Below are positions 68 to 42,833 of a DNA stretch of 64,000 bases, one piece after another. Where the stretch lies: NCBI GenBank assembly GCA_964016885.1, contig CAXHJY010000001.1, positions 620,001 to 684,000 on the forward strand, read 5' to 3'. The translations under genes and the position numbers were made by a program. Under the pieces are notes generated by a model, which saw nothing but the letters and a program-made list of their open reading frames with translations, searched no databases and was not told the origin of the DNA. This DNA is from Eledone cirrhosa (lineage: Eukaryota). Each line of letters begins with the position of its first letter. The first letter of the stretch is position 1.

Positions 68-205
68 TGTGTAAAACAGGTAAATTTGGACCCAACTGTA
101 AATACACATGACACTGTGCTGATAACAGCAGGTGTAACAAAGAGACAGGTGTGTGTTCTAGTGGAGGATGTGCTGTTGGTTATGAAGGTAGCAACTGTCA
201 GACAG
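68..205 (+). pseudogene. EGF-module exon A (138 bp) with in-frame TGA replacing a conserved Cys
   Basis: ccacAG acceptor and GTAAGT donor. Translates xCKTGKFGPNCKYT*HCADNSRCNKETGVCSSGGCAVGYEGSNCQT; TGA at 109-111 where paralogs have TGT/TGC. Confidence 0.8.
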
Positions 206-368: not shown

Positions 369-523
369 GGTGTAAAACAGGTAAATTTGGACCTAACTGT
401 AAACACACATGTTACTGTACTAACAACAGCAGGTGTAACAAACAGCTAGATGTAACACAGAGACAGGTGTGTGTTCCAGTGAAGTGTGTGGTGATGGTTA
501 TGAAGATAGCAACTGTAAGACAG
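369..523 (+). pseudogene. Degenerate EGF exon B, frameshifted by an internal duplication
   Basis: tttcAG acceptor, then CKTGKFGPNCKHTCYCTNNSRCNK; an extra aacagctagatgtaaca-type segment gives 155 bp instead of 138 and breaks the frame. Confidence 0.75.
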
Positions 524-574
524 GTGTGTTACAGTAGAGGGTGTGGTGCTGGTTATGAAGAAGTGGTACATAGT

Positions 575-1257: not shown

Positions 1258-1394
1258 TCTGTAGAAATGGTATATTTGGAGCCAATGTGGCAACACATGC
1301 CACTGTGTTGACAACAGTAAATATAACAAACAGACAGGTGTGTGTTCTAGTGGAGGATGTACTGCTGGTTATGAAGGTAGCAACTGTCAGACAG
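1258..1394 (+). pseudogene. EGF exon C, 137 bp (1-bp deletion plus Cys>Tyr)
   Basis: AG and GTAAGT intact, but gccaa-tgtggc lacks one base relative to exons D/E (gccaactgtggc), and AAATGT has become AAATAT. Confidence 0.8.
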
Positions 1395-1442: not shown

Positions 1443-1654
1443 GACAACAGCAGGTGTAACATACAGAGAGGTGTAACAAACAGCGAGATGTAACACAGCG
1501 ACAGGTGTGTGTTCCAATGAAGTGTGTTGTGTAGTATAGCTTAGTCTGTAGCTTAATATATTGAAACAAAACAACATCAGGTGTAACATAGAGACAGGTG
1601 TATGTTCTAGTGGAGGATGTGCTGCTGGTTATGAAGGTAGCAACTGTCAGAGAG
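1443..1654 (+). pseudogene. Two partial EGF-exon relics (3' halves)
   Basis: acaacagcaggtgtaac...gacaggtgtgtgttc pieces; the second ends tgtcagagag|GTAAGT with no 5' half or acceptor. Confidence 0.7.
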
Positions 1655-1681
1655 GTAAGTAGTATAGTAATTAAACTTCCT

Positions 1682-3178
1682 ATTACCATATTTCTAATGA
1701 AAGACACTGTATATGTCATTAACCCTTTCATTACCATATTTCTAATGAAAGACACTGTCTATGTCATTAACCCTTTCATTACCATATTTCTAATGAAGGA
1801 CACTGTATATGTCATTAACCCTTTCATTACCATATTTCTAATGAAGGACACTGTATATGTCATTAACCCCTTCATTACCATATTTCTAATGAAAGACACT
1901 CTATGTCATTAACCCTTTCATTACCATATTTCTAATGAAAGACACTGTCTATGTCATTAACCCTTTCATTACCATATTTCTAATGAAGGACACTGTATAT
2001 GTCATTAACCCTTTCATTACCATATTTCTAATGAAAGATACTGTATATGTCATTAACCATTTCATTACCATATTTCTAATGAAAGACACTCTCTGTCATT
2101 AACACTTTCATTACCATATTTCTAATGAAAGACACTCTATGTCATTAACCCTTTCATTACCATATTTCTAATGAAAGACACTGTCTATGTCATTAACCCT
2201 TTCATTACCATATTTTTAATGAAGGACACTGTATATGTCATTAACCCTTTCATTACCATATTTCTAATGAAAGACACTGTCTATGTCATTAACCCTTTCA
2301 TTACCATATTTCTAAAGAAAGACACTGCCTATGTCATTAACCCTTTCATTACCATATATCTAATGAAAGACACTGTCTATGTCATTAACCCTTTCATTAC
2401 CATATTTCTAATGAAAGACACTGTATATGTCATTAACCCTTTCATTACCATATTTCTAATGAAAGCCACTGTCTATGTCATTAACCCTTTCATTACCATA
2501 TTTCTAATGAAAGACACTGTCTATGTCATTAACCCTTTCATTACCATATTTCTAATGAAAGACACTGTCTATATCATTAACCCTTTCATTACCATATATC
2601 TAATGAAAGACACTGTCTATGTCATTAACCCTTTCATTACAATATTTCTAATGAAGGACACTGTATATGTCATTAACCCTTTCATTACCATATTTCTAAT
2701 GAAAGACACTCTATGTCATTAACCCTTTCATTACCATATATCTAATGAAGGACACTGTATATGTCATTAACCCTTTCATTACCATATTTCTAATGAAAGA
2801 CACTCTATGTCATTAACCCTTTCATTACCATATTTCTAATGAAAGACACTGTCTATGTCATTAACCCTTTCATTACCATATTTCTAATGAAGGACACTGT
2901 ATATGTCATTAACCCTTTCATTACCATATTTCTAATGAAAGACACTGTCTATGTCATTAACCCTTTCATTACCATATTTCTAATGAAAGACACTGTCTAT
3001 GTCATTAACCCTTTCATTACCATATTTCTAATGAAAGACACTGTCTATGTCATTAACCCTTTCATTACCATATTTCTAATGAAAGGCACTGTCTATGTCA
3101 TTAACCCTTTCATTACCATATTTCTAATGAAAGACACTACCTATGTCATTAACCCTTTCATTACCATTTTTCTAATAA
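1682..3178. repeat. 48-bp tandem satellite, array 1 (~31 units)
   Basis: Unit ttaaccctttcattaccatatttctaatgaaagacactgtctatgtca, with occasional 46-bp variants. Confidence 0.95.
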
Positions 3179-3526
3179 GGTAAGTGATGTAGCATAACTT
3201 TGTTGTAGCATAATATATTGAAACAAAACAACAGCAGGTGTAACTTAGAGACAGGTGTGTGTTCTTATTGAAAGTTTGACATCGCAACTCATTTTTATAG
3301 CTGAGTATCTTGAGCAACATGAAATAAAGTGACTTGTTCAAGAACACAAAACACAGCAAGATTCAGGCATCGAACTCACAACTTTATGATTGTAAGCCTG
3401 ACGCTCTTACCACTAATCCTTGTGCCTTCAATAGATATAATATAGAGGAATAGATATAATATAGGTTGTAGGGATATAGTACAGATGATATAGATATAAA
3501 ATAGTTGATATCACTATAGTATAGAT

Positions 3527-5283
3527 TAGGGGTCATCAAATCCCTGGCCACATCTGGCCTGCCGACAGGTTTTAATCTTAGACTAAGCGATCCCCTTAAA
3601 AATTGTTCCGAATTATTTGGGATTAAAATACCAACTAGAGAACACGTCTAACCACAAGACTCACTTAACTGAACGTAATGTTTTAATGTGACAGTAAGAA
3701 ACAATCAAACTCAGAGAGATAGAATAGTCAGACATCGAGGTCAAAGGGACTATGTGTGTGTATTCGTGTATATATGTACATACATAGTATCTGTATGGCA
3801 GGGATGTGAAATGACCCAGACTTACCTAAAAAAGTCAGTATGTCTGACATAGTTATTTCATTTCATCCTCAAAATTGTTCATTTTAGTTAACTGTCTGGT
3901 AGTAAAACATCTGTAAGGGACTGTATTTGATAATAATCAATGTTTATTTATTTTTCTATGTTAAAAGTGTTCAGTATTATTAGAAGTAAATATGTTCAAT
4001 GAACAAATGGCAACCCTGGTTTAAATACACTGCCAGGTGTCATGACTTTGTCAGAGTTTATTAAAAATGTCAGAGTATTTTATTATATTACTGCATTCTT
4101 TTTACATATGTTCTCATTACTTATTTGATATCATGGCCTGCTGACGAGACACTACATAGCTATGTGACTTGCTGACGAGACACTACATAGCAATGTGGCT
4201 TGCCGACGAGACACTACATAGCAATGTGGCCTGCTGGTGAGACACTCCATAGCTATGTGGCCTGCTGACAAGACACTACATAGCTATGTGGTCTGCTGAG
4301 GAGACACTACATAGCAATGTGGCCTGCTGGTGAGACACTGTATAGCTATGTGGCCTGCTGACCAGACACTACATAGCTATGTGGCCTGCTGGTGAGACAC
4401 TGCATAGCTATGTGGCCTGCTGCTGAAACACTGCATCGCTATGTGGCCTGCTGACAAGACACTGTATAGCAATGTGGCCTGCTGGTGAGACACTCCATAG
4501 CTATGTGGCCTGCTGGTGAGACACTGCATAGCTATGTGACCTGCTGACAAGACACTCCATAGCTATGTGGCCTGCTGACAAGACACTGCATAGCTATGTG
4601 GCCTGCTGCTGAAACACTGCATCGCTATGTGGCCTGCTGACAAGACACTGTATAGCAATGTGGCCTGCTGGTGAGACACTCCATAGCTATGTGGCCTGCT
4701 GACAAGACACTGTATAGCTATGTGGCCTGCTGACAAGACACTGTATAGCAATGTGGCCTGCTGACAAGACACTCCATCGCTATGTGGCCTGCTGAAAAGA
4801 CACTGCATAGCTACGTGGCCTGCTGGTGAGACACTCCATAGCTATGTGGCCTGCTGACAAGACACTGTATAGCAATGTGGCCTGCTGACAAGACACTCCA
4901 TAGCTATGTGGCCTGCTGACAAGACACTGTATAGCAATGTGGCCTGCTGACAAGACACTCCATAGCTATGTGGCCTGCTGACAAGACACTGTATAGCTAT
5001 GTGGCCTGCTGGTGAGACACTCCATAGCTATGTGGCCTGCTGACAAGACACTGTATAGCAATGTGGCCTGCTGACAAGACACTCCATAGCAATGTGGCCT
5101 GCTGACAAGACACTACATAGCTATGTGGCCTGCTGACAAGACACTGTATAGCAATGTGAGCAACTGACAAGACACTTCTCAACAATGTGGCCTGCCAGTG
5201 AGACACTGCATAGCAATGTGGCCTGCCTGTGTGACACTCCATAGCAATGTGGCCCGCACACCCCAAAAGGATGCCGACCTCTG
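3527..5283. mobile_element. Non-autonomous hAT (Charlie-like) element, copy 1, containing a 31-bp satellite
   Basis: Perfect 8-bp TSD GTATAGAT at 3519-3526 and 5284-5291; imperfect TIRs TAGGGGTC / GACCTCTG; ggccacat/atgtggcc subterminal motifs. Confidence 0.8.
4133..5255. repeat. 31-bp tandem satellite, array 1
   Basis: Unit atgtggcctgctgacaagacactgtatagc(t/a). Confidence 0.95.
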
Positions 5284-5391
5284 GTATAGATGACAACACT
5301 ATAATATATATGATATAATATTGTGATATTTATTATCTTGTATAGTGTAAATGTTGTTATAATTGTCATTGTTCTCATATTTTATTTCCAG

Positions 5392-5529
5392 TCTGTAAAT
5401 CAGGTAAATTTGGAGCCAACTGTGGCAACACATGTCACTGTGCTGACAACAGTAAATGTAACAAACAGACAGGTGTGTGTTCTAGTGGAGGATGTGCTGC
5501 TGGTTATGAAGGTAGCAACTGTCAGAGAG
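5392..5529 (+). CDS. EGF exon D: open frame but donor mutated (GT>TT)
   Basis: VCKSGKFGANCGNTCHCADNSKCNKQTGVCSSGGCAAGYEGSNCQR; matches exon E except the last codon; followed by TTAAGT instead of GTAAGT. Confidence 0.55.
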
Positions 5530-5557
5530 TTAAGTAGTATAGTAATTAAACTTTCTA

Positions 5558-6630
5558 TTACCATATATCTAATGAAAGACACTGTATATGTCATTAACCC
5601 TTTCATTACCATATATCTAATGAAAGACACTGTATATGTCATTAACCCTTTAATTACCATATTTCCAATGAAAGACACTGTCTATGTCATTAACCCTTTC
5701 ATTACCATATTTCTAATGAAAGACACTGTCTATGTCATTAACCCTTTCATTACAATATTTCTAATGAAAGACACTACCTATATCATTAACCCTTTCATTA
5801 CCATATTTCTAGTGAAAGACACTGTCTATGTCATTAACCCTTTCATTACCATATTTCTAATGAAAGACACTGTATATGTCATTAACCCTTTCATTACAAT
5901 ATTTCTAATGAAAGACACTACCTATATCATTAACCCTTTCATTACCATATTTCTAGTGAAAGACACTGTCTATGTCATTAACCCTTTCATTACCATATTT
6001 CTACTGAAAGACACTGTCAATATCATTAACCCTTTCATTACCATATTTCTAGTGAAAGACACTGTCTATGTCATTAACCCCTTCATTACCATATTTCTAA
6101 TGAAAGACACTGTCTATGTCATTAACCCTTTCATTACAATATTTCTAATGAAAGACACTACCTATATCATTAACCCTTTCATTACCATATTTCTAGTGAA
6201 AGACACTGTCTATGTCATTAACCCTTTCATTACCATATTTCTACTGAAAGACACTGTCTATGTCATTAACCCTTTCATTACCATATTTCTAATGAAGGAC
6301 ACTGTCTATGTCATTAACCCTTTCATTACCATATTTCTAATGAAGGACACTGTCTATGTCATTAACCCTTTCATTACCCTATTTCTAATGAAAGACACTG
6401 TATATGTCATTAACCCTTTAATTACCATATTTCCAATGAAAGACACTGTCTATGTCATTAACCCCTTCATTATTATATTTCTAATTAAAGACACTACCTA
6501 TGTTATTAACCCCTTCATTACTCTATTTCTAATGAAAGACACTGTCTATGTCATTAACCCTTTCATTACCATATTTCTAATGAAAGACACTGTCTATGTC
6601 ATTAACCCTTTCATTACCATATTTCTAATA
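5558..6630. repeat. 48-bp satellite, array 2 (~22 units)
   Basis: Same unit as 1682-3178. Confidence 0.95.
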
Positions 6631-6996
6631 AGGTAAGTGATGTAGCATAACTTTGTTGTAGCATAATATATTGAAACAAAACAACAGCAGGTGTAACTTA
6701 GAGACAGGTGTGTGTTCCTATTGAAAGTGTGACATCACAACTCATTTCTATAGCTGAGTATCTTGAGCAACATGAAATAAAGTGACTTGTTCAAGAACAC
6801 AAAACACAGCAAGATTCAGGCATCGAACTCACAACTTTATGATTGTAAGCCTGACGCTCTTACCACTAATCCTTGCGCCTTCAATAGATATAATATAGAG
6901 GAATAGATATAGTACAGCTATAGATATAATATAGGTTGTAGGGATATAGTACAGATGATATAGATATAAAATAGTTGATATCACTATAGTATAGAT

Positions 6997-9900
6997 TAGG
7001 GGTCATTAAATCCCTGGCCCGTGGGAACATCTAGCCCGCGGGCCACATCTGGCCTGCCGACAGGTTTCAATCTTAGACTAAGCGATCCCTGAAAAAGTGT
7101 TCTGAATTATTTGGGATTAAAATACCAACTAGAGAACACGTCTAACCTCAAGACTCACTTAACTGAACGTAATGTTTTAATGTGACAGTAAGAAACAATC
7201 AAACTCAGAGAGATAGAATAGTCAGACATCGAGGTCAAAGGGACTGTGTGTGTGTATTCGTGTATATATGTACATACATAGTATCTGTATGGCAGGGATG
7301 TGAAATGACCCCGACTTACCTAAAAAAGTCAGTATGTCTGACATAGTTATTTCATTTCATCCTCAAAATTGTTCATTTTAGTTAACTGTCTGGTAGTAAA
7401 ACATCTGTAAGGGACTGTATTTGATAATAATCAATGTTTATTTATTTTTCTATGTTAAAAGTGTTCAGTATTATTAGAAGTAAATATGTTCAATGAACAA
7501 ATGGCAACCGTGGTTTAAATACACTGCCAGGTGTCATGGCTTTGTCAGAGTTTATTAAAATTGTCAGAGTATTTTATTATATTACTGCATTCATTTTTAC
7601 ATATGTTCTCATTACTTATTTGATATCATGGCCTGCTGACGAGACACTGCATAGCTATGTGGCCTGCTGACGAGACACTGCATAGCTATGTGGCCTGCTG
7701 ACAAGACACTACATAGCTATGTGGCCTGCTGGTGAGACACTACATAACAACGTGGCCTGCTGGTGAGACACTGCATAGCTATGTGGCCTGCTGGTGAGAC
7801 ACTACATAGCTATGTGGCCTGCTGGTGAAACACTCCATAGCTATGTGGCCTGCTGACAAGACACTACATAGCTATGTGGCCTGCTGGTGAGACACTACAT
7901 AGCTATGTCGCCTGCTGGTGAGACACTCCATAGCTATGTGGCCTGCTGGAGAGACACTGCATAGCTATGTGGCCTGCTGGTGAGACATTACATAGCAATG
8001 TGGCCTGCTGGTGAGACACTACATAGCAATGTGGCCTGCTGGTGAGACATTACATAGCTATGTGGCCTGCTGCTGAGACACTACATAGCTATGTGGCCTG
8101 CTGACGAGACACTCCATAGCAATGTGGCCTGCTGGTGAGACATTACATAGCAATGTGGCCTGCTGACGAGACACTACATAGCTATGTGGCCTGCTGGTGA
8201 GACACTCCATAGCTATGTGGCCTGCTGGTGAGACACTGCATAGCTATGTGGCCTGCTGGTGAGACATTACATAGCAATGTGGCCTGCTGGTGAGACACTA
8301 CATAGCAATGTGGCCTGCTGGTGAGACATTACATAGCTATGTGGCCTGCTGCTGAGACACTACATAGCTATGTGGCCTGCTGACGAGACACTCCATAGCA
8401 ATGTGGCCTGCTGGTGAGACATTACATAGCAATGTGGCCTGCTGACGAGACACTACATAGCTATGTGGCCTGCTGGTGAGACACTGCATAGCTATGTGGC
8501 CTGCTGGTGAGACATTACATAGCAATGTGGCCTGCTGGTGAGACACTACATAGCAATGTGGCCTGCTGGTGAGACATTACATAGCTATGTGGCCTGCTGC
8601 TGAGACACTACATAGCTATGTGGCCTGCTGACGAGACACTCCATAGCAATGTGGCCTGCTGGTGAGACATTACATAGCAATGTGGCCTGCTGACGAGACA
8701 CTACATAGCTATGTGGCCTGCTGGTGAGACACTCCATAGCTATGTGGCCTGCTGGTGAGACACTACATAGCAATGTGGCCTGCTGGTGAGACATTACATA
8801 GCAATGTGGCCTGCTGACGAGACACTACATAGAAATGTGGCCTGCTGGTGAGACACTCCATAGCTATGTGGCCTGCCGACAAGACACTACATAGCAATGT
8901 GGCCTGCTGGTGAGACACTACATAGCAATGTGGCCTGCTGACGAGACACTACATAGCTATGTGGCCTGCTGGTGAGACACTCCATAGCTATGTGGCCTGC
9001 TGGTGAGACATTACATAGCAATGTGGCCTGCTGACAAGACACTCCATAGCTATGTGGCCTGCTGACAAGACACTGTATAGCAATGTGGCCTGCTGACAAG
9101 ACACTCCATAGCTATGTGGCCTGCTGCTGAGACACTACATAGCAATGTGGCCTGCTGGTGAGACATTACATAGCTATGTGGCCTGCTGATGAGACACTAC
9201 ATAGCTATGTGGCCTGCTGACGAGACACTCCATAGCAATGTGGCCTGCTGACAAGACACTCCATAGCTATGTGGCCTGCTGGTGAGACACTACATAGCAA
9301 TGTGGCCTGCTGGTGAGACATTACATAGCAATGTGGCCTGCTGACGAGACACTACATAACTATGTGGCCTGCTGGTGAGACACTCCATAGCTATGTGGCC
9401 TGCTGGTGAGACACTACATAACAATGTGGCCTGCCAACGAGACACTCCATAGCAATGTGGCCTGCTGGTGAGACACTCCATAGCTATGTGGCCTGCTGAC
9501 AAGACACTGTATAGCAATGTGGCCTGCTGACGAGACACTCCATAGCAATGTGGCCTGCTGATAAGACACTACATAGCTATGTGGCCTGCTGACAAGACAC
9601 TGTATAGCTATGTGGCCTGCTGACAAGACACTGTATAGCAATGTGGCCTGCTGACAAGACACTCCATAGCAATGTGGCCTGCTGACAAGGCACTACATAG
9701 CTATGTGGCCTGCTGACAAGACACTGTATAGCTATGTGGCCTGCTGACGAGACACTCCATAGCAATGTGGCCTGCTGATAAGACACTACATAGCTATGTG
9801 GCCTGCTGACAAGACACTCCATAGCAATGTGGCCTGCTGACAAGACACTCCATAGCAATGTGGCCTGCTGACAAGACACTCCATAGCAATGTGGCCTGCT

Positions 9901-10142
9901 GACAAGACACTACATAGCTATGTGGCCTGCTGACAAGACACTCCATAGCAATGTGGCCTGCTGGTGAGACACTCCATAGCTATGTGGCCTGCTGACATGA
10001 CACTGTATAGCAATGTGAGCAACTGACAAGACACTTCGTAACAATGTGGCCTGCCAGTGAGACACTGCATAGAAATGTGGCCTGCCTGTGTGACACTGCA
10101 TAGAAATGTGTCCCGCACACCCCAAAAGGATGCCGACCTCTG
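6997..10142. mobile_element. Non-autonomous hAT element, copy 2 (duplicated with the host segment)
   Basis: Same GTATAGAT TSD (6989-6996, 10143-10150) and same flanks as copy 1. Confidence 0.8.
7628..10115. repeat. 31-bp satellite, array 2 (~80 units)
   Basis: Same unit as 4133-5255, more than twice as long. Confidence 0.95.
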
Positions 10143-10250
10143 GTATAGATGACAACACTATAATATAGATGATATAATATTGTGATATTTATTATCTTGT
10201 ATAGTGTAAATGTTGTTATAATTGTCATTGTTCTCATATTTTATTTCCAG

Positions 10251-10388
10251 TCTGTAAATCAGGTAAATTTGGAGCCAACTGTGGCAACACATGTCACTGT
10301 GCTGACAACAGTAAATGTAACAAACAGACAGGTGTGTGTTCTAGTGGAGGATGTGCTGCTGGTTATGAAGGTAGCAACTGTCAGACAG
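10251..10388 (+). CDS. EGF exon E (intact)
   Basis: tttccAG / GTATAT; VCKSGKFGANCGNTCHCADNSKCNKQTGVCSSGGCAAGYEGSNCQT, 8 Cys, 138 bp. Confidence 0.8.
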
Positions 10389-10400: not shown

Positions 10401-11362
10401 ATTAACCCTTTCATTACCATATTTCTAATGAAAGACACTGTCTATGTCATTAACCCCTTCATTACCATATTTCTAATGAAAGACACTGTCTATGTCATTA
10501 ACCCTTTCATTACCATATTTCTACTTAAAGACACTGTCTATGTCATTAACCCTTTCGTTACCATATTTCTAATGAAAGACACTGTCTATGTCAGAGGAGA
10601 GGAACCTTTTTACCATTAGAGGCCACATTTAAATTAGGCAGTAATAAAGGAGGCCGCATAAGTTGATATACCTATGAATGCGACTTTTGTGAAATTATTA
10701 TAGTTTTTGTATAGTTTTATAGTCATTTATTATTTAACATAAAAAGTTACAACATAAAATATTTTTGTATTCACATAATTATAAAGAAATACAATAGAAA
10801 AATAATAATATTAAGTTAAAAAAACTAATATAGCAAAAATACGTAAAATAATTTTAAAATCCGATGGAAAATTCAAGTTAGTCGGATATTTGCATTTGTT
10901 TCTTGCTTGAAAGTAATTGAATATTTGGATTAAGGTTTAATGACATAGACTCTATGTCATTAAACCTTTCATTACCAAGTTTCTACTTAAAGACACTGTC
11001 TATGTCATTAATCCTTTCATTACCATATTTCTACTTAAAGACACTGTCTATGTCATTAATCCTTTCGTTACATATTTCTACTTAAAGACACTGTCTATAT
11101 CATTAACCCTTAGATTACCATATTTCTACTTAAAGACACTGTCTATGTCATTAATCCTTTCATTACCATATATCTACTTAAAGACACTGTCAATATCATT
11201 AACCCTTTCGTTACATATTTCTACTTAAAGACACTGTCTATGTCATTAACCCTTTCATTACATATTTCTACTTAAAGACACTGTCTATATCATTAACCAT
11301 TTCATTACCATATTTCTACTTAAAGACACTGTCTATGTCATTAATCCTTTCATTACCATATT
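10401..11362. repeat. 48-bp satellite, array 3, interrupted by a hAT-like fragment (10592-10930)
   Basis: Same unit. The interruption starts CAGAGGAGAGGAACCTTTT...ggccacat, resembling a hAT terminus. Confidence 0.85.
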
Positions 11363-11580
11363 ACTAAAGAAATATATTGCATACGATTTTAAAAAAATGT
11401 TTATATAATGAAGAATTTGAAGGGCTATAGTTATATAACTGAGATTTTGATCACTAATATTTTGGATGGAACATAACCTAACAAAAGTTCTCACATAATA
11501 CTATAGTGGGAGGTTTTTAGATAAATATATAGAGTAAAACAGTTAATCGGTGTCAGGTATTTTGATATCAAAAAGGTTAA
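11341..11580. mobile_element. TTAA-flanked MITE (piggyBac-like ends)
   Basis: Starts TTAATCCTTTCATTACCA (last satellite unit) and ends TGATATCAAAAAGGTTAA, an imperfect inverted copy. Confidence 0.55.
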
Positions 11581-11641
11581 TAATTCTAAATATTATATCT
11601 TGAAATTGTTCAAACTGTTTACATTACATTTTATATTACAG

Positions 11642-11779
11642 CCTGTGACATTGGTAAATTTGGAGCTAACTGTAAACACACATGCCACTGTGCTGATAAT
11701 AACAGGTGTAACAAACAGACAGGTGTGTGTTCTAGTGGAGGATGTACTGCTGGTTATGAAGGTAGCAACTGTCAGACAG
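11642..11779 (+). CDS. EGF exon F (intact)
   Basis: ttacAG / GTAAGT; ACDIGKFGANCKHTCHCADNNRCNKQTGVCSSGGCTAGYEGSNCQT. Confidence 0.85.
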
Positions 11780-12467
11780 GTAAGTGGTGTAGTATAGCTT
11801 TGTTTCTAACATGATATATTGAGTCAAGATGACAGTAGGTTTAACACACAGCTAGGTGTAACACAGAGACAGGTGTGTGTTTTAGTGGAGGGTGTAGTGC
11901 TGGTTATGAAGGTAACACCTGTGAGACAGGTAGATTTAAACTGTTTTGGAGCTACAATCATCATCATCGTCATTTTACGTCTGCTTTTCCCTGCTTACAA
12001 GGGTGGGACGGAAACTGATTCTGGCTTGATTTCTACAGCTGGATGCCCTTCCTAACACCAACCTCATTTACAGTGAATATTGGGTGTTTTTTTGCCGTGG
12101 CACCTCCAGGACCACTTTGCAGTGGAATGATATGGACCCCAGTCCCTATCATCTCATTTCTACAGCTGAGTAAACTGGAGCAATGTGAAATAAAGTGTCT
12201 TGCTCAAGGAAACAACACATCACCCGGTCTGAGAATTGAACTCACAACCTTTCGATTGCAAGGCCAATGCTCTAACTACTAAGCTATGTGCTTACAATAT
12301 AAAGGGGATATCATGGCCTCATGAATATATAGTATAACATTGGTATGGAGTGTAGAGAATCGGCAAGTATATAGACATAATATCGATGTTACGGAAATCA
12401 TATAGATTGTATAGATATAGTATGGATTATATATAGTTTAGGTCATACCACTGGAGTATAAAATAAT

Positions 12468-12990
12468 ATAATAATGAAATTATTGTGTACAGTGCTCAGG
12501 TGCACTACAACTCATCAAAGGTGCATGTATAGTACATAGAATAATGTTTAAATGTCAGGAAAAGGAACAGTGTATGAGTCATGAAATACATGTGTGCGTG
12601 TGTATGGAAGGGGGGACATCAGGTGCAGTGTTGACGAATCTCAGGAAGCATAGAGATTTTAAAGGATGCAGTGTCTCGACAGCTAACAACTGATGCAGGT
12701 AGTTTGTTCCATGGAGGTTTTAAAGGATGTAGTGTTTCGACAGCTAACAACTGATGCAATTAGTTTGTTCCATGGAGGTTTTAAAGGATGCAGTGTCTCG
12801 ACAGCTAACAACTGATGCAGGTAGTTTGTTCCATGGAGGTTTTAAAGGATGTGTCTCGACAGCTAACAACTGATGCAGGTAGTTTGTTCCATGCTTCAGC
12901 AACTCTGAGCTTGAAAAAATGTTTCCGAAAGTCATGGGAGCTGTGCTGTTTTCTGACTTTGTAGGCATATCCATGGGTGTTAGAAACATG
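12468..12990 (-). mobile_element. CR1-like LINE 3' end with a ~60-bp internal tandem expansion
   Basis: Minus strand encodes FRKHFFKLRVAEAWNKLPASVVSCRDTASFKTSM (CR1/L2-type RT C-terminus) with a (TAT)n tail. Related pieces near 16470, 27200, 33548 and 39699. Confidence 0.65.
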
Positions 12991-13074
12991 GAAATTAAGA
13001 TGATACAAATATAGTACAGATGATATAGATATAGTATAGATGACAACGCTATAATATAGATGATAGAATTGTGG

Positions 13075-15658
13075 TTGGTGTGGTCCTGGTTATAAGGTAG
13101 CAGCTGTCAGACAGGTGTGTTACAGTAGATGGTGTGGTCCTGGTTATAAAGTAGCACCTGTCAGACAGGTGTGTTACAGTAGATGGTGAAGTCCTGGTTA
13201 TAAGGTAGCACCTGTCAGACAGGTGTGTTACAGTAGATGGTGTGGTCCTGGTTATAAGGTAGCACCTGTCAGACAGGTGTGTTACAGTAGATGGTGTGGT
13301 CCTGGTTATAAGGTAGCACCTGTCAGACACGTGTGTTACAGTAGATGGTGTGATCCTGGTTATAAGGTATCATCTATCAGACAGGTGTGTTACAGTAGAT
13401 GGTGTGGTCCTGGTTATAAGGTAGCACCTGTCAGACAGGTGTGTTACAGTAGATGGTGAAGTCCTGGTTATAAGGTAGCACCTGTCAGACAGGTGTGTTA
13501 CAGTAGATGGTGTGGTCCTGGTTATAAGGTAGCAGCTGTCAGACAGGTGTGTTACAGTAGATGGTGTGGTCCTGGTTATAAAGTAGCACCTGTCAGACAG
13601 GTGTGTTACAGTAGATGGTGAAGTCCTGGTTATAAGGTAGCACCTGTCAGACAGGTGTGTTACAGTAGATGGTGTGGTCCTGGTTATAATGTAGCACCTG
13701 TCAGACAGGTGTGTTACAGTAGATGGTGTGGTCCTGGTTATATGGTAGCAGCTGTCAGACAGGTGTGTTACAGTAGATGGTGTGATCCTGGTTATAAGGT
13801 AGCACCTGTCAGACAGGTGTGTTACAGTAGATGGTGTGGTCCTGGTTATAAGGTATCATCTATCAGACAGGTGTGTTACAGTAGATGGTGTGGTCCTGGT
13901 TATAATGTAGCACCTGTCAGACAGGTGTGTTACAGTAGATGGTGTGGTCCTGGTTATATGGTAGGAGCTGTCAGACAGGTGTGTTACAGTAGATGGTGTG
14001 GTCCTGGTTATAAGGTAGCACCTGTCAGACAGGTGTGTTACAGTAGATGGTGTGGTCCTGGTTATAAGGTAGCACCTGTCAGACAGTTGTGTTACAGTAG
14101 ATGGTGTGGTCCTGGTTATAAGGTAGCACCTGTCAGACAGGTGTGTTACAGTAGATGGTGTGGTCCTGGTTATAAAGTAGCACCTGTCAGACAGGTGTGT
14201 TACAGTAGATGGTGAAGTCCTGGTTATAAGGTAGCACCTGTCAGACAGGTGTGTTACAGTAGATGCTGTGGTCCTGGTTATAATGTAGCACCTGTCAGAC
14301 AGGTGTGTTACAGTAGATGGTGTGGTCCTGGTTATATGGTAGCAGCTGTCAGACAGGTGTGTTACAGTAGATGGTGTGATCCTGGTTATAAGGTAGCACC
14401 TGTCAGACAGGTGTGTTACAGTAGATGGTGTGGTCCTGGTTATAAGGTATCATCTATCAGACAGGTGTGTTACAGTAGATGGTGTGGTCCTGGTTATAAT
14501 GTAGCACCTGTCAGACAGGTGTGTTACAGTAGATGGTGTGGTCCTGGTTATATGGTAGGAGCTGTCAGACAGGTGTGTTACAGTAGATGGTGTGGTCCTG
14601 GTTATAAGGTAGCACCTGTCAGACAGGTGTGTTACAGTAGATGGTGTGGTCCTGGTTATAAGGTAGCACCTGTCAGACAGTTGTGTTACAGTAGATGGTG
14701 TGGTCCTGGTTATAAGGTAGCAGCTGTCAGACAGGTGTGTTACAGTAGATGGTGTGGTCCTGGTTATATGGTAGTACCTGTCAGACAGTTGTGTTACAGT
14801 AGATGGTGTGGTCCTGGTTATAAGGTAGCACCTGTCAGACAGGTGTGTTACAGTAGATGGTGTGGTCCTGGTTATAAGGTATCATCTATCAGACAAGTGT
14901 GTTACAGTAGATAGTGTAGTCCTGGTTATAAGGTAGCAGCTGTCAGACAGGTGTGTTACAGTAGATGGTGTGGTCCTGGTTATAAGGTATCATCTTTCAG
15001 ACAGGTGTGTTACAGTAGATGGTGTGGTCCTGGTTATAAGGTAGCAGCTGTCAGACAGGTGTGTTACAGTAGATGGTGTGGTCCTGGTTATTAGGTAGCA
15101 CCTGTCAGACAGGTGTGTTACAGTAGATGGTGTGGTCCTGGTTATAAGGTAGCACATGTCAGACAGGTGTCTTACAGTAGATGCTGTGGTCCTGGTTATA
15201 AGGTATCATCTATCAGACAGGTGTGTTACAGTAGAAGGTGTGGTCTTGGTTATAAGGTAGCAGCTGTCAGACAGGTGTGTTACAGTAGATGGTGTGATCC
15301 TGGTTATAAGGTAGCACCTGTCAGACAGGTGTGTTACAGTAGATGGTGTTGTCCTGGTTATAAGGTATCATCTATCAGACAAGTGTGTTACAGTAGATAG
15401 TGTAGTCCTGGTTATAAGGTAGCACCTGTCAGACAGGTGTGTTACAGTAGATGGTGTGGTCCTGGTTATAAGGTATCATCTGTCAGACAGGTGTGTTACA
15501 GTAGATGGTGTGGTCCTGGTTATAAGGTAGCACCTGTCAGACACGTGTGTTACAGTAGATGGTGTGGTCCTGGTTATAAGGTATCATCTGTCAGACAGGT
15601 GTGTTACAGTAGATGGTGTGGTCCTGGTTATAAGGTAGCACCTGTCAGACACGTGTGT
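13075..15658. repeat. 54-bp satellite derived from the EGF exon 3' half (~48 units)
   Basis: Unit gtgtgttacagtagatggtgtggtcctggttataaggtagcacctgtcagacag versus exon gtgtgtgttctagtggaggatgtgctgctggttatgaaggtagcaactgtcagacag. Confidence 0.92.
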
Positions 15659-15881
15659 GCTCTTTTGTAGTTCTATTTCTTTAGAAAATCTACCAGACAA
15701 ATGGATGAATGTCATCTTCAGTCATGATGAAATGTATCCAGTAACATCTGAGAGGTCAGTAGCTCCGATTAAGTTCTGAGTCGGTCTCTGTTGACACATC
15801 CCACTCTTGGTTACAGGGGAAGTGAATGTTAAATGTTCATCATGAGGAAGATGTGAGTAGCAGGGGCAGTAGAGTTACAGA

Positions 15882-16101
15882 TTAACCCTTTAGCATTTAC
15901 ACTACTTCATATACACTATTATATTTTCACAGTAAAGGCTTTATCTCATATAATTATCTCACATAATATCAAATCTATGAGATTTTGATATTATCTATTT
16001 TGAGAACAATACCTTAACATAAGTATGAGCAGCCAGTTATGGCTGGTTTGAACAGAAAGAAGTGAGAGAATTGTGGCCGGTTTAAATTCTAAAGGTTTTA
16101 A
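15882..16101. mobile_element. TTAA-flanked MITE, second family (piggyBac-like)
   Basis: TTAACCCTTTAGCATTTA...TAAATTCTAAAGGTTTTAA; homologs at 23429-23656, 28965-31668 and ~31690-31839. Confidence 0.65.
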
Positions 16102-16664
16102 TGGGTTGTGATTTTGAGTTCTTTTTTAAAACGGTATTCAAATCCCACCAAAATCAACTTTTTCTGTCATACTTTTGGAGTAGATAGAATAATATAGCAG
16201 TGAAATACCATGCAATGGACTAGCATCCTGTCCAGGTGTGGGGAATACAGTGGACTCTGCTCAGTGTGATACCTACCGACAGTTAGAAGGACTGGGCTGT
16301 TGAATATACAAAAACAAAAAATGTCTAAAGTGTGTCTCGAGTGCTGAGGGTCATCAGGCCAGTGCTATCTATGGCATGAAGTGACTTAAAATACAAAACT
16401 TCCCCTGGACAGGGCACCAGTCCATCCCAAGGTTAAATCACCAGCTATTACTGGCACTGATCTCCAAGCTTCCTGAAATTCGCCAACACTACACCTGATA
16501 TCCCTCCTCCATACACACGTACATATGTTTATCATGACTCATACACTGTTCATTTTCCTGACATTTGTTCATTATTCTATGTGCTTTACATGCACCTTTG
16601 ATGAGTTATAGTGCACCTGAGCACTGTACACAATAATTTCACTATTATTATTATTATTATACTG

Positions 16665-16860
16665 GAGCGGTGGATTGTCAGTATTAGTAGAGAGTCGGAC
16701 GCCATGCTTTGAAGCATAGAGTTACGTCCCTTTATGATCTGAGTTCAAATCCCACCAAGGTTAACTTTGCCTTTCATCCTTACGGGGTCGATAAAATAAA
16801 GTACCAGTAATGTACTGGGTAATTGCTGGCCTTGTGTCAAAAGTAGAAACAATTATTATT
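16665..16860 (+). mobile_element. tRNA-derived SINE
   Basis: Box A-like and box B (GAGTTCAAATCC) motifs, conserved tttgcctttcatccttacggggtcgataaaataaagtaccagt body, (ATT)n tail. Other copies near 24062, 25600, 27555(-), 32981, 39134, 58418 and 59090(-). Confidence 0.8.
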
Positions 16861-17022
16861 ATACTGGAGCAACATGAATGGAAATACTTTTGCTCAAGAA
16901 CACAACACACAACCTAGTTGAGGAATAGAACTCACAACATTATGATTGTAAGTCCAACACCCTTACCACAAGGCCACACAAATACACACCAAAATATATA
17001 TTTGTTATTGATTGATTTGTAG

Positions 17023-17160
17023 GATGTAAGAGAGGAAAATTTGGACCAAACTGTCGAAACATGTGTCATTGTGCTGACAAGAGTAAATGTAAGCCACAGA
17101 CTGGTAGCTGCTCTAATGGAGGATGTGCTCCTGGATATGAAGGTGGCAACTGTCAGACAG
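17023..17160 (+). CDS. EGF exon G (intact)
   Basis: ttgtAG / GTAAGT; GCKRGKFGPNCRNMCHCADKSKCKPQTGSCSNGGCAPGYEGGNCQT. Confidence 0.88.
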
Positions 17161-17175
17161 GTAAGTGGTGTACTA

Positions 17176-18813
17176 TCATCATCATAAATATCATCATTGT
17201 TATTATCATCATCATCACTACTACCACCACTACCACAACCACAACCGCAACCACTACCCAACATCACTATCAACCACCACAACTCCCACTGCAACCACCA
17301 CCACCTCACCCACAACCACCACCAACCACCACCACCACCACCATACCCTGTACTACCACCACCACTACCAACCACTACCACCACCAACCACCACCATCAC
17401 CACCACCACCACCACCACCATAACCTGTACCACCACCACCACCACCACCACCAGCCACCACTGCCACTAACACCACCACCACTACCACCACTGCCATTAC
17501 CACCCCCACACCACTACTACCGCCACCACTACCACCACCACCACCATCATCACCATCATCACCACCACCACCACTGCCATTACCACCGCCACTACCACCA
17601 CCACCACCACTACCACCACCAACACTACCACCACCACTACCACCACCACTACCACCACCACCACTACCACCACCACCACTGCCACTACCACCACCACCAT
17701 CACCATCACCTCCACTACCACCACTGCCATTACCACCACCACTACCACCACTGCCATTACTACAAGCACTACCACCACCATCACTACCACTACCATCACC
17801 ACCACCACTACCACCACTACCACCACCACTACCACTACCACCACCACCACTACCACCACCACCACCACTACCACCACCACCACCACTACCACCACTACCA
17901 CCACCACCACTACCACCACCACCACCACCACCACCACTAACACCACTACCACCACCACCACTACCACCACTAACACCACCACCACCTCCATCACCACCAC
18001 CACCTCCACCACTACCACCACCACTACCACCACTACCACCACCACCACCACTACCGCCACCACCACCTCCACCACTACCACTACCACCACTACCACCACC
18101 ACCACCACCACCTCCACCACCACCTCCACTACCACTACCACCACCACCACCACTACCACCACTACCACCACAACCACCACCACCACCACCTCCACTACCA
18201 CCACCTTCACCACCACCAACTCTACTACCACCACCACCACTACCACCACCACCTCCACTACCACCACCACCACCACTACCACCACCACCACCACCACCAC
18301 CACCACTACCACCACTACCACCACCACTACCACCACTACCACCACCACCACCACTACCACCACCACCACCACTACCACCACCACTACCACCACCACCACC
18401 ACCATCACCACCACCTCCACTACCACCACTGCCATTACTACAACCACTACCACCACCATCACTACCGCCACCACCACCACCACCACATCGACCACCACCA
18501 CCACTACCACCACCACCATCACCATCACCTCCACTACCACCACTGCCATTACCACCGCCACTACCACCACTGCCATTACTACAACCACTACCACCACCAT
18601 CACTACCACCTCCATCACCACCACCACCACCACCACCACTACCACTACCACCACCACCACCACCACTACCACCACCACCACCACCACCACTACCACCACT
18701 ACCACCACCACCACTACCACCACTACCACCACCACCACTACCACCACTAACACCTCCATCACCGCCACCACCACTACCACTACCACCACCACCACCACCA
18801 CCTCCACTACCAC

Positions 18814-18844
<31 letters not shown>

Positions 18845-19317
18845 ACCACCACCTCCACTACCACCACCTCCACCACCACCACATCTACTACCACCACCAC
18901 TACCACCACCACCACCATCACCACCACCTCCACTACCACCACTGCCATTACTACAACCACTACCACCACCATCACTACCGCCACCACCACCACCACCACA
19001 TCGACCACCACCACCACTACCACCACCACCATCACCATCACCTCCACTACCACCACTGCCATTACCACCACCACTACCACCACTGCCATTACTACAACCA
19101 CTACCACCACCATCACTACCACCACCATCACCACCACCACCACCACCACCACCACTACCACCACCACCACTACCACCACCACCACCACCACCACTACCAC
19201 CACTACCACCACCACCACTACCACCACCACCACTACCACCACTAACACCACCACCACCTCCATCACCGCCACCACCACTACCACTACCACCACCACCACC
19301 ACCACCTCCACTACCAC

Positions 19318-19348
<31 letters not shown>

Positions 19349-20172
19349 ACCACCTCCACTACCACCACCTCCACCACCACCACCCCTACCACCACCACTA
19401 CCACCACCACCACCACCACCACTACCACCACCACTACCACCACTACCACCACCACTACCACCACCACTACCACCACCACCACCACCACCACCACCACCAC
19501 CACCTCCACTACCAGCACCTCCACCACCACTACCACCACCACTACCACCACTACCACCACCACTACCACCACCACCACCACCACCACCACCATCACCACC
19601 ACCTCCACTACCACCACTGCCATTACTACAACCTCTACCACCACCATCACTACCGCCACCACCACCACCACCACATCGACCACCACCACCACTACCACCA
19701 CCACCATCACCATCACCTCCACTACCACCACTGCCATTACCACCACCACTACCACCACTGCCATTACTACAACCACTACCACAACCATCACTACCACCAC
19801 CATCACCACCACCACTACCACCACCACCACTACCACTACCACCACCACCACTAACACCACCACCACCACCACTACCACCACTACCACCACCACCACTACC
19901 ACCACTAACACCACCACCACCTCCATCACCACCACCACCTCCACCACTACCACCACCACTACCACCACTACCACCACCACCCCCACTACCGCCACCACCA
20001 CCTCCACCATTACCACCACCACCACTACCACCACCACGACCTCCACCACCACCTCCACTACCACTACCACCACCACCACCACCACTACCACCACCACTAC
20101 AACCACTACCACCACCACCACCACCTCCACTACCACCACCTCCACCACCACCACCACCACTACCACCACCAC

Positions 20173-20203
<31 letters not shown>

Positions 20204-21005
20204 ACTACCACCACTACTACCACCACTACCACCACTACCACCACCACCACTACCACCACCACTACCACCACTACCACCACCACTACCACCACTACCACCA
20301 CCACCACCACCACCACCTCCACTACTACCACCTCCACCACCTACACCACTACCACCACCACCACCACCACTGCCACCACCACCACCACCACCATCACCAC
20401 CACCTCCACTACCACCACTGCCATTACTACAACCACTACCACCACCATCACTACCGCCACCACCACATCGACCACCACCACCACTACCACCACCACCATC
20501 ACCATCACCTCCACTACCACCACTGCCATTACCACCACCACTACCACCACCACTACCACCACCACCACCACCACCATCACCACCACCTCCACTACCACCA
20601 CTGCCATTACTACAACCACTACCACCACCATCACTACCGCCACCACCACCACATCGACCACCACCACCACTACCACCACCACCATCACCATCACCTCCAC
20701 TACCACCACTGCCATTACTACAACCACTACCACCACCATCACTACCACCTCCACCACCACTACCACCACCACCACTACCACCACCACCACCACTACCACC
20801 ACCACCACCACCACCACTACCACTACCACCACTACCACTACCACCACCACCACCACCACTACCACCACCACCACTACCACTACCACCACCACTGCCACCA
20901 CCGCCACCACCACATCGACCACCACCACCACTACCACCACCACCTACACTAACAGCACCACCACTACCACCACCACCTCCATTACCACCACCACCACCAC
21001 CACTA
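17176..21005. repeat. 3.8-kb imperfect (CCA/CTA)n trinucleotide tract with higher-order blocks
   Basis: Continuous CCA backbone with recurrent variant cassettes. Confidence 0.95.
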
Positions 21006-21044
21006 TTGTTGTTGATGATGTTTACTGTTATTTTTGTACATTCT

Positions 21045-22520
21045 CTACATTTCACATCTCACACAATTCACATCTATATTTCACATTATACAATCCACAC
21101 CTTTACATTTCACATATCCTACATTTCACATCACCTACATTTCACATCTCTTACCTTTCACATCCTTACATTTCACATCTCCTACATTTCACATCTCCTA
21201 CATTTCACATCTCCTACATTTCACATCCCTTACATTTCACATCTACATTTCACATCTCCTACATTTCACATCTCTTACATTTCACATCTACATTTCACAT
21301 CTCTTACATTTCACATCTCCTACATTTCACATCTCCTACATTTCACATCACCTACATTTCACATCTCTTACATTTCACATCCTTACATTTCACATCTCCT
21401 ACATTTCACATCTCCTACATTTCACATCTCCTACATTTCACATCTCTTACATTTCACATCTCCTACATTTCACATCTCCTACATTTCACATCTCTTACCT
21501 TTCATATCTCCTACATTTCACATCTCCTACATTTCACATCTCTTACATTTCACATATCCTACATTTCACATCTCCTACATTTCACATCTCTTACATTTCA
21601 CATCTCCTACATTTCACATCTCTTACATTTCACATCCTTTCATTTCACATCTGCTACATTTCACATCCTTACATTTCACATCTCCTACATTTCACATCTC
21701 TTACATTTCATATCTCTTACATTTCACATCTCTTACATTTCACATATCTTACATTTCACATCTCTTACATTTCACATCTCTTACATTTCACATCTACTAC
21801 ATTTCACATCTACTACATTTCACATCTCCTACATTTCACATCTCCTACATTTCACATCCTTACATTTCACATCTCTTACATTTCACATCTCTTACATTTC
21901 ACATATCCTACATTTCACATCTCCTACATTTCACATCTCTTACATTTCACATCTCCTACATTTCACATATCTTACATTTCACATCCTTTCATTTCACATC
22001 TGCTACATTTCACATCCTTACATTTCACATCTCCTACATTTCACATCTCTTACATTTCATATCTCTTACATTTCACATCTCTTACATTTCACATATCTTA
22101 CATTTCACATCTCTTACATTTCACATCTCTTACATTTCACATCTACTACATTTCACATCTACTACATTTCACATCTCCTACATTTCACATCTACATTTCA
22201 CATCCTTACATTTCACATCTCCGACATTTCACATCTCTTACATTTCACATCTCTTACATTTCACATCTCTTACATTTCATATCTACTACATTTCACATCT
22301 CCTACATTTCACATCTCCTACATTCCTCATCCCTACATTTCACATCCTTACATTTCACATCTCCTACATTCCTCATCCTTACATTCCTCATCCCTACATT
22401 TCACATCTCCTACATTCCCCATCCCTACATTTCATACCCACTACATTTCATATTCCTACATTTCACATCCCATACATTTCACAACTCATACATTGTATAT
22501 CACATACATTTCACATCTCA
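21045..22520. repeat. ~16-bp minisatellite (tacatttcacatctcc/tt)
   Basis: Direct tandem repetition with shorter variants. Confidence 0.95.
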
Positions 22521-32015: not shown

Positions 32016-32020
32016 GTTGG

Positions 32021-32980
32021 TTTAATACTCTTTTACGTTTACTACTAACTAGTATAACTATATTATTAATGTCTACATATGTTTATTACTCTTTTACTTT
32101 TACTACTAACTAGTATAACTATATTATTAATGTCTACATATGTTTATTACTCTTTTACGTTTACTACTAACTAGTATAACTATATTATTAATGTCTATAT
32201 AGGTTTATTACTCTTTTACTTTTACTACTAACTAGTATAACTATATTATTAATGGCTACATATGTGTATTACTCTTTCACTTTTACTACTAACTAGTATA
32301 ACTAAATTATTAATGACTACATAGGTGTATTACTCTTTCACTTTTACTACTAACTAGTATAACTATATTATTAATGACTACATATGTTTAATACTCTTTT
32401 ACTTTTACTACTAACTAGTATAACTATATTATTAATGACTACATAGGTTTATTACTCTATTACTTTTACTACTAACTAGTATAACTATATTATTAATGAC
32501 TACATAGGTTTATTACTCTTTTACTTTTACTACTAACTAGTATAACTATATTATTAATGACTACATAGGTGTATTACTCTTTCACTTTTACTACTAACTA
32601 GTATAACTATATTATTAATGACTACATATGTTTAATACTCTTTTACTTTTACTACTAACTAGTATAACTATATTATTAATGACTACATAGGTTTATTACT
32701 CTATTACTTTTACTACTAACTAGTATAACTATATTATTAATGACTACATAGGTTTATTACTCTTTTACTTTTACTACTAACTAGTATAACTATATTATTA
32801 ATGACTACATAGGTTTATTACTCTTTTACTTTTACTACTAACTAGTATAACTATATTATTAATGGCTACATAGGTGTATTACTCTTTTACTTTTACTACT
32901 AACTAGTATAACTATATTATTAATGACTACATAGGTTTAATAGTCTTTTATTTCTACTTCTAACTAGTCTAACTATATTA
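32021..32980. repeat. 61-bp AT-rich satellite (~16 units)
   Basis: Unit actcttttacttttactactaactagtataactatattattaatgactacataggtttatt, starting just after the exon L donor. Confidence 0.95.
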
Positions 32981-34494
32981 TGGCAGTATCGGTAGAGAGT
33001 CGGATGCCGTGCTTTCCAGCATAGTTATGTCCCTTTACAATCTGAGTTCAAATCCCGCCGAAGTTAACTTTGCCTTTCATCCTTACGGGGTCGATAAAAT
33101 AAAGTACCAGTAATACACTGGGATAATTGCTGACCTTGTGCTGAAAGTAGAAACAATTATTATTCCTGGTGGACAGTAATGGACCACAGGTGACAGGTTA
33201 ATGTGGGTAGTAAAGTATCTCAGGAGAAAGGTAGATGTAGACAGAAGTATTTGCAAGGAAGCAAACTTGCACCTGTTCCTTACAGGACCCTCCATCTACT
33301 TCTTTCTATCTCCACATGTACTTTATCTGGTTTTCCTAACTGTTATTTATAGTGATCAACTATTATGAAAGTCTTTTACGTTGGAACTACTGCAAATAAA
33401 TAAAATAGTATAAGAAAACATCACAGGAATATGACAAGCATAGAAATATCACTGATGATGTCACAGATATGTGATGAAAAAACTCTGAGAAACTATATTT
33501 ATATTTATATTTTTTAACTGTTGGTCAATCAATATATATAAAAATTTGCTGAAGTATGGAACAAACTACCTGCATCAGTTGTGTGCTGCCAGGACACTGC
33601 ATCCTTTAAAACCTCCATGCTTCCTGAAATTCACTGAAGCATGGAACAAACTACCTGCATCAGTTGTTAGCTGCCGGGACACTGCATCCTTTAAAACCTC
33701 CATGTTGCCTGAAATTCGCCAACCCTGCACCTGATATTCCCCCTCCATACATACATACACACACACACATATATCTTGACTCGAGCCTAGTTAGTACTTA
33801 GATGGGAAACCACTTGAGAAACCTAGGTGCTGTAAGCATTTCCTTTTATTTTTTTTTTGCGCCAACACTACACCTGATATTCCCCCTCCATACACACGCA
33901 TGCATGTGTCTGTGTGTATCTCATGACTCATACATTGTTCACTGTCTGTTCACTAATGTACTATACATTCACCATTGATGAGTTGTAGTGCACCTGAGCA
34001 CTGTACACAATAATTTTATTATTATCATCATCATCATCATTTTACGTCCGCTTTTCCCTGCTTGCAAGGGTGGGACGGGTCTTATTAAGCATGGCATCTC
34101 TTCATTCGTCACGGTCCCTTGTCATCTCCTCCGTGAGTTTCAGCAATTTGAGGTCTTCTCTCACCACCTCCGCCCATGTTTTTCATGGTCTACCTCTACT
34201 GCGTCTTCCTTCTACTGGGATTTGTTGGCACTTCTTTACCCAGCGGTCATCCTCCATGCGCATCACATGTCCATACCATCTCAGCTCAGCCTTCTCTCCT
34301 GCACACCACAACTTATCCCTCTTATACCCAGTTTCTTTCTCAACTCGTCTATGCTTGGTCATTCACGCACATTGGCATTATAGTTATGTATAATTGTGTA
34401 TATGTATGTTATAGCTGTGTATAATTGTATATATGTGTTATTTTATATATATGTTGTGTATATAATTCTATTTTCTTTTTTTTTTTTTTTTCAG

Positions 34495-42750: not shown

Positions 42751-42816
<66 letters not shown>

Positions 42817-42833
42817 GTATATATATATATACA

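Follow-up and report, generated by a model that had tools for sequence, protein, structure and literature searches.

How does a tandem array come to lie between two coding exons of an EGF-type gene, from what was it made, and does it serve any purpose there? These questions are raised by a stretch of 64,000 nucleotides of Eledone cirrhosa DNA (hereafter the window), in which a 54-bp minisatellite separates two intact EGF-like exons. A first-pass annotation of the same letters had read the array as an exon turned into a satellite in place by slippage, and its repeated splice-site motifs as a field of decoys. The two proposals are examined here against the exons, the flanks of the array, its internal order and its coding and splicing potential.

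Structure of the array

13076..15658, + strand: 54-bp minisatellite (TRF: period 54, 47.8 copies, 93% matches, 0% indels)

About 48 copies of a 54-bp unit had been annotated at 13011..15658, and TRF recovers them as 47.8 copies over 13076-15658. Read in a single register from 13108, the array holds 47 full units of 24 types, which lie on average 3.2% from their consensus, and it closes on an incomplete unit of 13 nt (15646-15658). Minisatellites are described as head-to-tail units of about 10-100 bp in arrays of 0.5 to several kb (PMC2820488, PMC3618361), and 47.8 units of 54 bp, amounting to 2.6 kb, fall within this size range.

EGF-like exons and the host gene

The exon search in the window combined a six-frame motif scan with tblastn and returned 13 exon-like segments, all on the + strand between 68 and 34632. 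Eleven of these 13 are phase 1-1 exons of 138 nt, and every one of them codes for a module of 45 residues in which the cysteine spacing is conserved.

68..205, + strand: exon A, 138 nt, in-frame TGA
369..523, + strand: exon B, 155 nt; 17 extra nt shift the frame
1258..1394, + strand: exon C, 137 nt, frameshift (1 nt short)
1578..1656, + strand: half-exon copy, 3' part only
5392..5529, + strand: exon D, frame open; donor GT changed to TT
10251..10388, + strand: exon E, intact 138-nt phase 1-1 EGF-like exon
11642..11779, + strand: exon F, intact; last intact exon 5' of the array
11854..11931, + strand: half-exon copy, with the array's hairpin-lengthening change (6-bp stem)
17023..17160, + strand: exon G, intact; first exon 3' of the array
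Starts at 22562, 24302, 24727, 27856, 31878 and 34495, + strand: further 138-nt exons after G

Six full exons precede the array, and four of them (A, B, C and D) are broken, which makes 4 of the 13 overall; two half-exons and several smaller exon fragments are scattered among the upstream exons. Exons A (stop) and C (frameshift) have intact acceptors and donors scoring 9/9, and splicing them in would break the frame. The segment 68-5529 is thus one of three things: skipped, outside the transcript, or pseudogene. Within 369-566, the 17-nt gain of exon B together with the 2-nt loss of the extra unit that follows it leaves the frame open from 371 and regains the C-G-x-G-Y motif, and a weak GT at 567 would close an in-phase 198-nt exon; the open frame across this interval is probably a coincidence. 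A 17-bp slippage unit of mid-exon origin, in 2-3.6 copies, was also seen in three degenerate copies (421-470, 1444-1501 and 11832-11876).

All six of the exons that were scanned matched EGF-type Pfam families (E 2e-4 to 9e-3), one of them reaching the curated cut-off. A profile built from ten exons retrieved 142 proteins, headed by the multi-EGF receptor phosphatase P0001 of Octopus sinensis (57% identity to exon F) and followed by multi-EGF receptors of bivalves, gastropods and amphioxus. Molluscan multi-EGF receptors, both the MEGF10/11-like ones and those that combine EGF with tyrosine-phosphatase, share with the present exons the 45-residue EGF-like module and its cysteine spacing. The non-EGF domains of five homologues were not found in the window, where tblastn matched EGF exons only; the other parts of the host gene may lie outside it. 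P0001 itself is at best a paralogue.

Exon origin of the repeat unit

The proposed derivation of the unit from the 3' part of an EGF exon is borne out. Against the last 57 nt of exons A-F and of the two half-exons, the unit consensus agrees in 45-47 of 57-58 columns (z 7.5-10.1), the null being 300 dinucleotide shuffles per segment. Its score lies above all 300 shuffles in 13 of the 15 exon or half-exon segments, which answers the comparison with shuffled controls in favour of an exon origin; the two segments that do not beat their shuffles are the distant exons K and L (z 2.5 and 1.8). From exon segment to unit, 2 nt were lost in a GT run and 1 nt elsewhere, with about seven substitutions.

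The natural direct repeat said to bracket this segment is present as well. The sequence CAGACAGGT stands at positions 75 and 132 of exon F, i.e. 57 nt apart. In exons C, E and F the two copies agree in all 9 nt, and in A over 8 nt. Its first copy consists of internal Gln-Thr-Gly codons, and its second of the exon end plus the donor GT.

Flanks of the array

13009..13073, + strand: 5' flank, paralogous to intron sequence some 70-130 nt upstream of exons D/E (alignment score 109 vs a maximum of 58 in 500 shuffles)
15659..15680, + strand: 3' flank, weakly similar to the intron that follows the donors of A, C and F

The upstream sequence had been called paralogous to the intron before exons D and E, and rightly so: 13034-13069 matches 10143-10178 at 34 of 36 positions and 5284-5319 at 33 of 36, while 13009-13061 matches 3474-3526 and 6944-6996 (46/53). 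The intron before D/E holds an insertion with one 8-mer on both its sides, and the 5' flank of the array is without it. This flank likely preserves the empty site, the element in question having an 8-bp target duplication, and would then predate that insertion. The insertion copies (3527-5283 and 6997-10142) are flanked by an 8-bp direct repeat and contain a 31-bp array, in 36 and 80 copies. A hAT-like identity of the element would rest on the 8-bp duplication; its termini are only loosely alike.

On the 3' side, an anchored test over 22 nt gave 14/22 against the post-donor intron of A and F (p 0.003) and 13/22 against that of C, with no match to the other 11 introns (p 0.056 or more); unanchored, the match is not significant (p 0.155), and over 34 positions it fades to p 0.045-0.08. 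Relative to cassette E, the 5' flank meets the array about 160 nt early, and what is missing is the last ~66 nt of the intron, the acceptor and ~90 nt of the 5' part of the exon. No remnant of the lost acceptor or 5' exon part was found in 11935-13075 or 15660-16990. The earlier placement of the array where an exon is expected therefore holds in one respect and fails in another: a strong 5' flank and a weak 3' one support the view that it lies in the remnant of an EGF exon cassette, and this remnant has neither an acceptor nor the first two-thirds of the exon.

These flanks also bear on a different origin, namely a dispersed satellite family that was born from such an exon elsewhere and inserted here, for example via a mobile element. 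Carriage of this kind does occur in the window, as its 31-bp arrays sit inside the insertion with the 8-bp target duplication, but the nearest relatives of the array and the paralogues of both its flanks all lie within 13 kb, and a search of the window with the unit returned, apart from EGF exons and pieces of them, nothing better than E 0.2. We regard such an arrival from outside as very unlikely.

A sister unit and the descent of the array

517..560, + strand: extra unit behind broken exon B, truncated at its 3' end and sister to the array unit; tree support 90/83

The closest relative of the array unit is an extra unit that follows exon B, identical to the array consensus at 37 of 40 positions over 517-556. 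Over 44-46 aligned columns the array differs from it by 4 changes and from exons A-F by 10-12. A 2-nt deletion and five substitutions set both the array and the extra unit apart from the majority of the exons; three of the substitutions recur in exon B and two in the half-exon at 11854. In the tree, the fork that unites them has a support of 90/83, which is under the tool's 95/80 mark, from 64 columns. An intermediate with one extra unit had been proposed near 524-560, and the extra unit is real; the shared deletion and substitutions mark it as a sister by descent rather than an intermediate.

The first duplication likely happened once, in a broken exon-B-like cassette that would later have been copied. 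Because the extra unit is a sister by descent, the precursor of the array was likely an already duplicated, frame-broken copy and not a live exon. Accordingly, of the idea of an exon turned satellite in place, the exon origin and the location in a cassette remnant are retained and the intact starting exon is given up. Gene conversion between cassettes could also account for changes that the array has in common with its sister unit. The cassette combines a D/E-like 5' flank, a B-like unit and a hairpin change that is also present in the 11854 half-exon; this mosaic points to conversion or repeated unequal crossover, and it makes a simple story of descent incomplete.

The competing course of events, in which a live exon was directly turned into a satellite by repeated slippage of the unit, would make the unit at 518-560 an independent intermediate or a later conversion product. 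It agrees with the resemblance of both array flanks to exon-cassette introns, and the presence of the repeat in A, C, E and F makes independent events possible. It would nevertheless need the identical 2-nt deletion and five substitutions twice; moreover, the partial unit that opens the array at 13076 is already of array type, and an 11-unit block duplication (see below) is not unit-by-unit slippage. For these reasons it appears decidedly improbable.

The reading we prefer, and hold to be quite probable, sees in the array a 54-bp minisatellite that is homologous to the last 57 bp of the gene's EGF-like exons and that likely grew, as a neutral by-product, out of an exon cassette which was broken beforehand. 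One extra unit would first have been created in a degenerate exon-B-like copy, by slippage or unequal crossover between the CAGACAGGT repeats, and the 2-nt loss would have followed. The cassette would then have been duplicated with the rest of the exon array, one copy staying at two units (369-560), and the other would have lost 1 more nt and reached about 48 units as its units recombined, the 594-bp block duplication being one such event. The expanded copy has neither the acceptor nor the 5' part of the exon. The low-copy stage, with its junction at the repeat, is represented by exon B plus the extra unit at 517-560, and states with zero extra units (E, F), with one (B) and with 48 units all lie within 16 kb.

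Expansion and turnover of tandem arrays

13540..14727, + strand: higher-order duplication in which units 9-19 recur as units 20-30 (blocks of 11 units, 594 bp)

Unit types are identical at lag 11 in 10 of 36 comparisons, against 1.9 expected and in 0 of 2000 shuffles, and this is the sole clear lag of 23 tested. The duplicated block includes a 456-bp exact match, and adjacent units are no more alike than chance. This order points to recombination-driven block duplication. Slippage between the repeats had been credited with all of the roughly 48 copies; a birth between the CAGACAGGT repeats fits that account, and the later growth included the 594-bp block duplication.

Cassettes D and E diverge by 1.0-1.7%, yet the 31-bp unit stands at 36 vs 80 copies in them and a 48-bp unit at 22.5 vs 4, so that copy numbers at this locus, to judge by these two cassettes, change fast. 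Tandem arrays number 16 and take up 30% of the window, a share that rises to 66% in its first 23 kb, so that the birth of an array is a routine event here. Of the DNA outside arrays in the first 17.2 kb, 15% is exon-like. Since arrays are abundant and the exon-like share is 15%, one exon-derived array here is not improbable. It is from this local base rate, and from the absence of coding selection described below, that we infer the probable neutrality of the array.

Other arrays keep company with exons. A 48-bp array comes directly after exon donors at 1682-3176, 5551-6629, 10401-10593 and 10951-11366, and behind each of the first two the start of the post-donor intron occurs a second time, together with an exon fragment. 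A 61-bp array (32019-32981) begins 4 nt past the donor of exon L; its copy at 38668-39134 recurs with downstream sequence at 38.7-39.9 kb, without the exon. The G-H intron (17223-22519) is filled by a 3.8-kb ACC-rich array and then a 1.5-kb array of a 16-bp unit.

The window in general is AT-rich and dense in tandem arrays and transposon remnants. A broken Helitron occupies 52256-55998 (Pfam Helitron_like_N, PIF1 and Pif1_2B over four frames), and reverse-transcriptase remnants are found at 29296-30653, 35767-37137, 40223-41905, 42469-45875 and 49093-49806, two of them with a PHD-finger match and one, presumably Penelope-like, with a weak GIY-YIG match.

A hairpin at the unit junction

Folding brought out a palindrome that spans the junction between units, and in the consensus it forms a perfect 7-bp stem with a 3-nt loop. 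This stem is present at 22 of the 48 junctions, and stem-breaking variants occur at 26. The stem measures 4 bp in exons A, C, E and F and in the two-unit sister B, and 6 bp in the half-exon at 11854, where there is no expansion. The predicted DNA hairpin has -6.6 kcal/mol in the array, -3.8 in the sister and -1.8 in the intact exons. Stems of at least 7 bp arose in 28 of 5000 shuffles, in a test that was post hoc, and one substitution accounts for the gain.

From these features a tentative model can be drawn, which we think rather unlikely. One substitution, by lengthening the palindrome from 4 to 7 bp, would have driven that copy to 48 units while its hairpin-poor sister stayed at two, with stem-breaking variants acting as brakes; the CAGACAGGT repeat, which the protein's Gln-Thr-Gly periodicity and the donor GT impose, would make the EGF exon family a recurring source of half-exons and satellites. 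Expansion here does not require a hairpin, since the stems of eight other array units in the window reach only 2-6 bp.

Splicing potential

Most units do carry the two motifs that had been ascribed to them, the donor-like 9-mer CAGGTGTGT being found in 39 of the 47 units and TTACAG in 47/47. The 9-mer agrees with MAG/GURAGU at 8 of 9 positions, and the real donors of the 13 exons at 6-9. An identical 9-mer lies inside exons A-F, 57 nt before the donor. This internal site is in frame, and its use would drop exactly 19 codons; in exon E it outscores the real donor (8/9 vs 7/9). The acceptor-like site of the unit has a T fraction of 0.30 and two upstream AGs, compared with 0.40-0.95 and 0-1 AG for the 13 exon acceptors, and no usable acceptor was found in the unit, all six AGs of which have an upstream T fraction of 0.25-0.35. 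The pseudo-exon predicted between the two motifs is 43 nt long, out of frame, and carries a stop. The supposed field of decoy splice sites thus finds no support, as the acceptor-like site is without a T-tract and the donor-like 9-mer is already inside exons A-F. Concealment of the donor-like site by the junction hairpin finds no support either, its median accessibility of 0.43 being within the 0.01-0.69 of exon and half-exon donors.

Human minisatellites that repeat an exon-intron junction offer a comparison. The cases set out in PMC1557585 are F7 IVS7 (37 bp), 6-16 (25 pseudo-sites), CBS IVS13 (31 bp), LMNB2 (100 bp) and PDGF intron 4 (81 bp). Most pseudo-donors in these arrays are described there as silent: only the first site is used in F7, LMNB2 and PDGF, pseudo-donors are partly used in 6-16 and CBS, and across the five arrays use extends to the first site or to the first and two nearby pseudo-sites (PMC1557585). 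The Eledone array is like these five in being an intronic tandem array whose unit, present in tens of repeats, contains an exon end and a donor-like site. In the human arrays, however, the authentic donor of a live exon lies within the first unit, and intron sequence forms part of the units, whereas here the unit is wholly exon-derived, the donor-like site is rebuilt from internal codons, and no acceptor-bearing exon is attached. As there is no live exon donor at its start, the array only resembles the F7/CBS class and is not filed as a member of it.

A role in splicing, in which the ~39 donor-like sites would bind U1 or compete with the donor of exon F and so alter EGF exon inclusion, can be argued from a 9-mer comparable to the exon donors and from the partial use of pseudo-donors in 6-16 and CBS. 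Against it stand the want of a usable acceptor, the out-of-frame pseudo-exon with its stop, the distance of 1.3 kb between exon F's 9/9 donor and the beginning of the array, the occurrence of the same 9-mer inside exons A-F together with its loss in 8 of 47 units, and the use of only the first site in F7, LMNB2 and PDGF. Such a role is, in our estimate, highly unlikely; the array is predicted to be spliced out with the F-G intron, its pseudo-donors silent.

Coding potential

The consensus has one open + frame, and its 54 nt make 18 codons in which the C-G-x-G-Y part of the EGF motif is kept in frame. The thought that the array is translated as an 18-residue cysteine-containing repeat arises from this, but stops occur in that frame in 7 of 47 units, no acceptor leads into it, and the 24 distinct changes (19 replacements, 3 stops and 2 silent, vs 115/12/35 possible) contain no silent excess and hence give no sign of coding selection. 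No protein homologue was recovered either: the array frame had 0 matches among 6520 protein candidates of 127-406 aa, and phmmer returned 38 matches at 19-43% identity, the 11 examined being unrelated repeats. Ten of the phmmer matches were looked up, and two are named, from clam and worm. Pfam matches to IN_DBD_C, BAMBI, SCAN and ARM were rejected, since they look like summed repeat scores. At the RNA level, four units fold no better than shuffles (z -1.25), and Rfam gave 0 matches over 11500-17300. That the array is an assembly artefact is countered by its 24 unit types in structured order and by array-type contigs in sequencing runs X1 and X6. Taken as one alternative, a translated repeat or an artefact is extremely unlikely.

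Contigs from sequencing runs

Contigs from four of 23 sequencing runs were compared over 11380-13230 only, and none spans the array. In the bins that fall within the array, run X1 (organism A) reaches a depth of 47,000-160,000. Run X6 (organism C) has 22-403 there, its listed single contigs standing at 3-10, and run X5 (organism B), whose letters are exon-like, has 8-29 beside single contigs of 19-29. These depths, which are not copy number, hint at amplification of the unit in A and C but not in B. In run X4, 3 of 30 bins are uncovered and array depth is low, and no inference is drawn from it. X1 also has single contigs at a depth of 646-763 on 11479-11732, 11776-11951 and 12255-12486 (intron and exon pieces), two joints fitting paralogues at ~461-556 and 1526-1600 at 547-589, and diverged repeat copies at 4-12. 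The X1 sample may hold many near-identical copies of the cassette block, or may come from an unevenly amplified library.

Relation to known routes of minisatellite formation

Two models described in PMC3389668 and PMC2820488 are relevant here. In the Haber-Louis model a minisatellite is born between direct repeats of 5-10 bp, a feature present at this locus as the repeat 57 nt apart, 9 bp long in C, E and F and 8 bp in A. The slipped-strand model of Taylor and Breden is marked by an incomplete last unit, and the array has one, of 13 nt. What distinguishes the array from the cases behind both models is its substrate, an exon segment. Minisatellites are also described as arising from Alu and other transposons (PMC3389668), and there too a multi-copy element with internal short direct repeats seeds arrays; the seed here is instead a tandemly duplicated coding exon. 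A full-text search found no published report of this array or of an exon-derived octopus minisatellite, a weak negative as most subscription papers fall outside its coverage. The array is a minisatellite formed by a known route, and neither a new mechanism nor a new function is shown.

Its interest lies in its traceability. The origins of minisatellites are usually hard to trace, and here a precursor exon, a two-unit sister and a 48-unit array are found within 16 kb, a clear if ordinary illustration of the direct-repeat model, seeded by a coding exon. Greater weight would attach to the case should the hairpin prove to explain the expansion, or should transcripts be seen to use the donors of the array; were the hairpin reading true, the locus would be a natural experiment on how a duplication turns into a satellite. 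The gene displays a fast birth and death of EGF exons, with 4 of 13 broken and two half-exons, and, again if that reading is true, the EGF exon family would keep giving rise to half-exons and satellites as the exons of a cephalopod receptor turn over rapidly.
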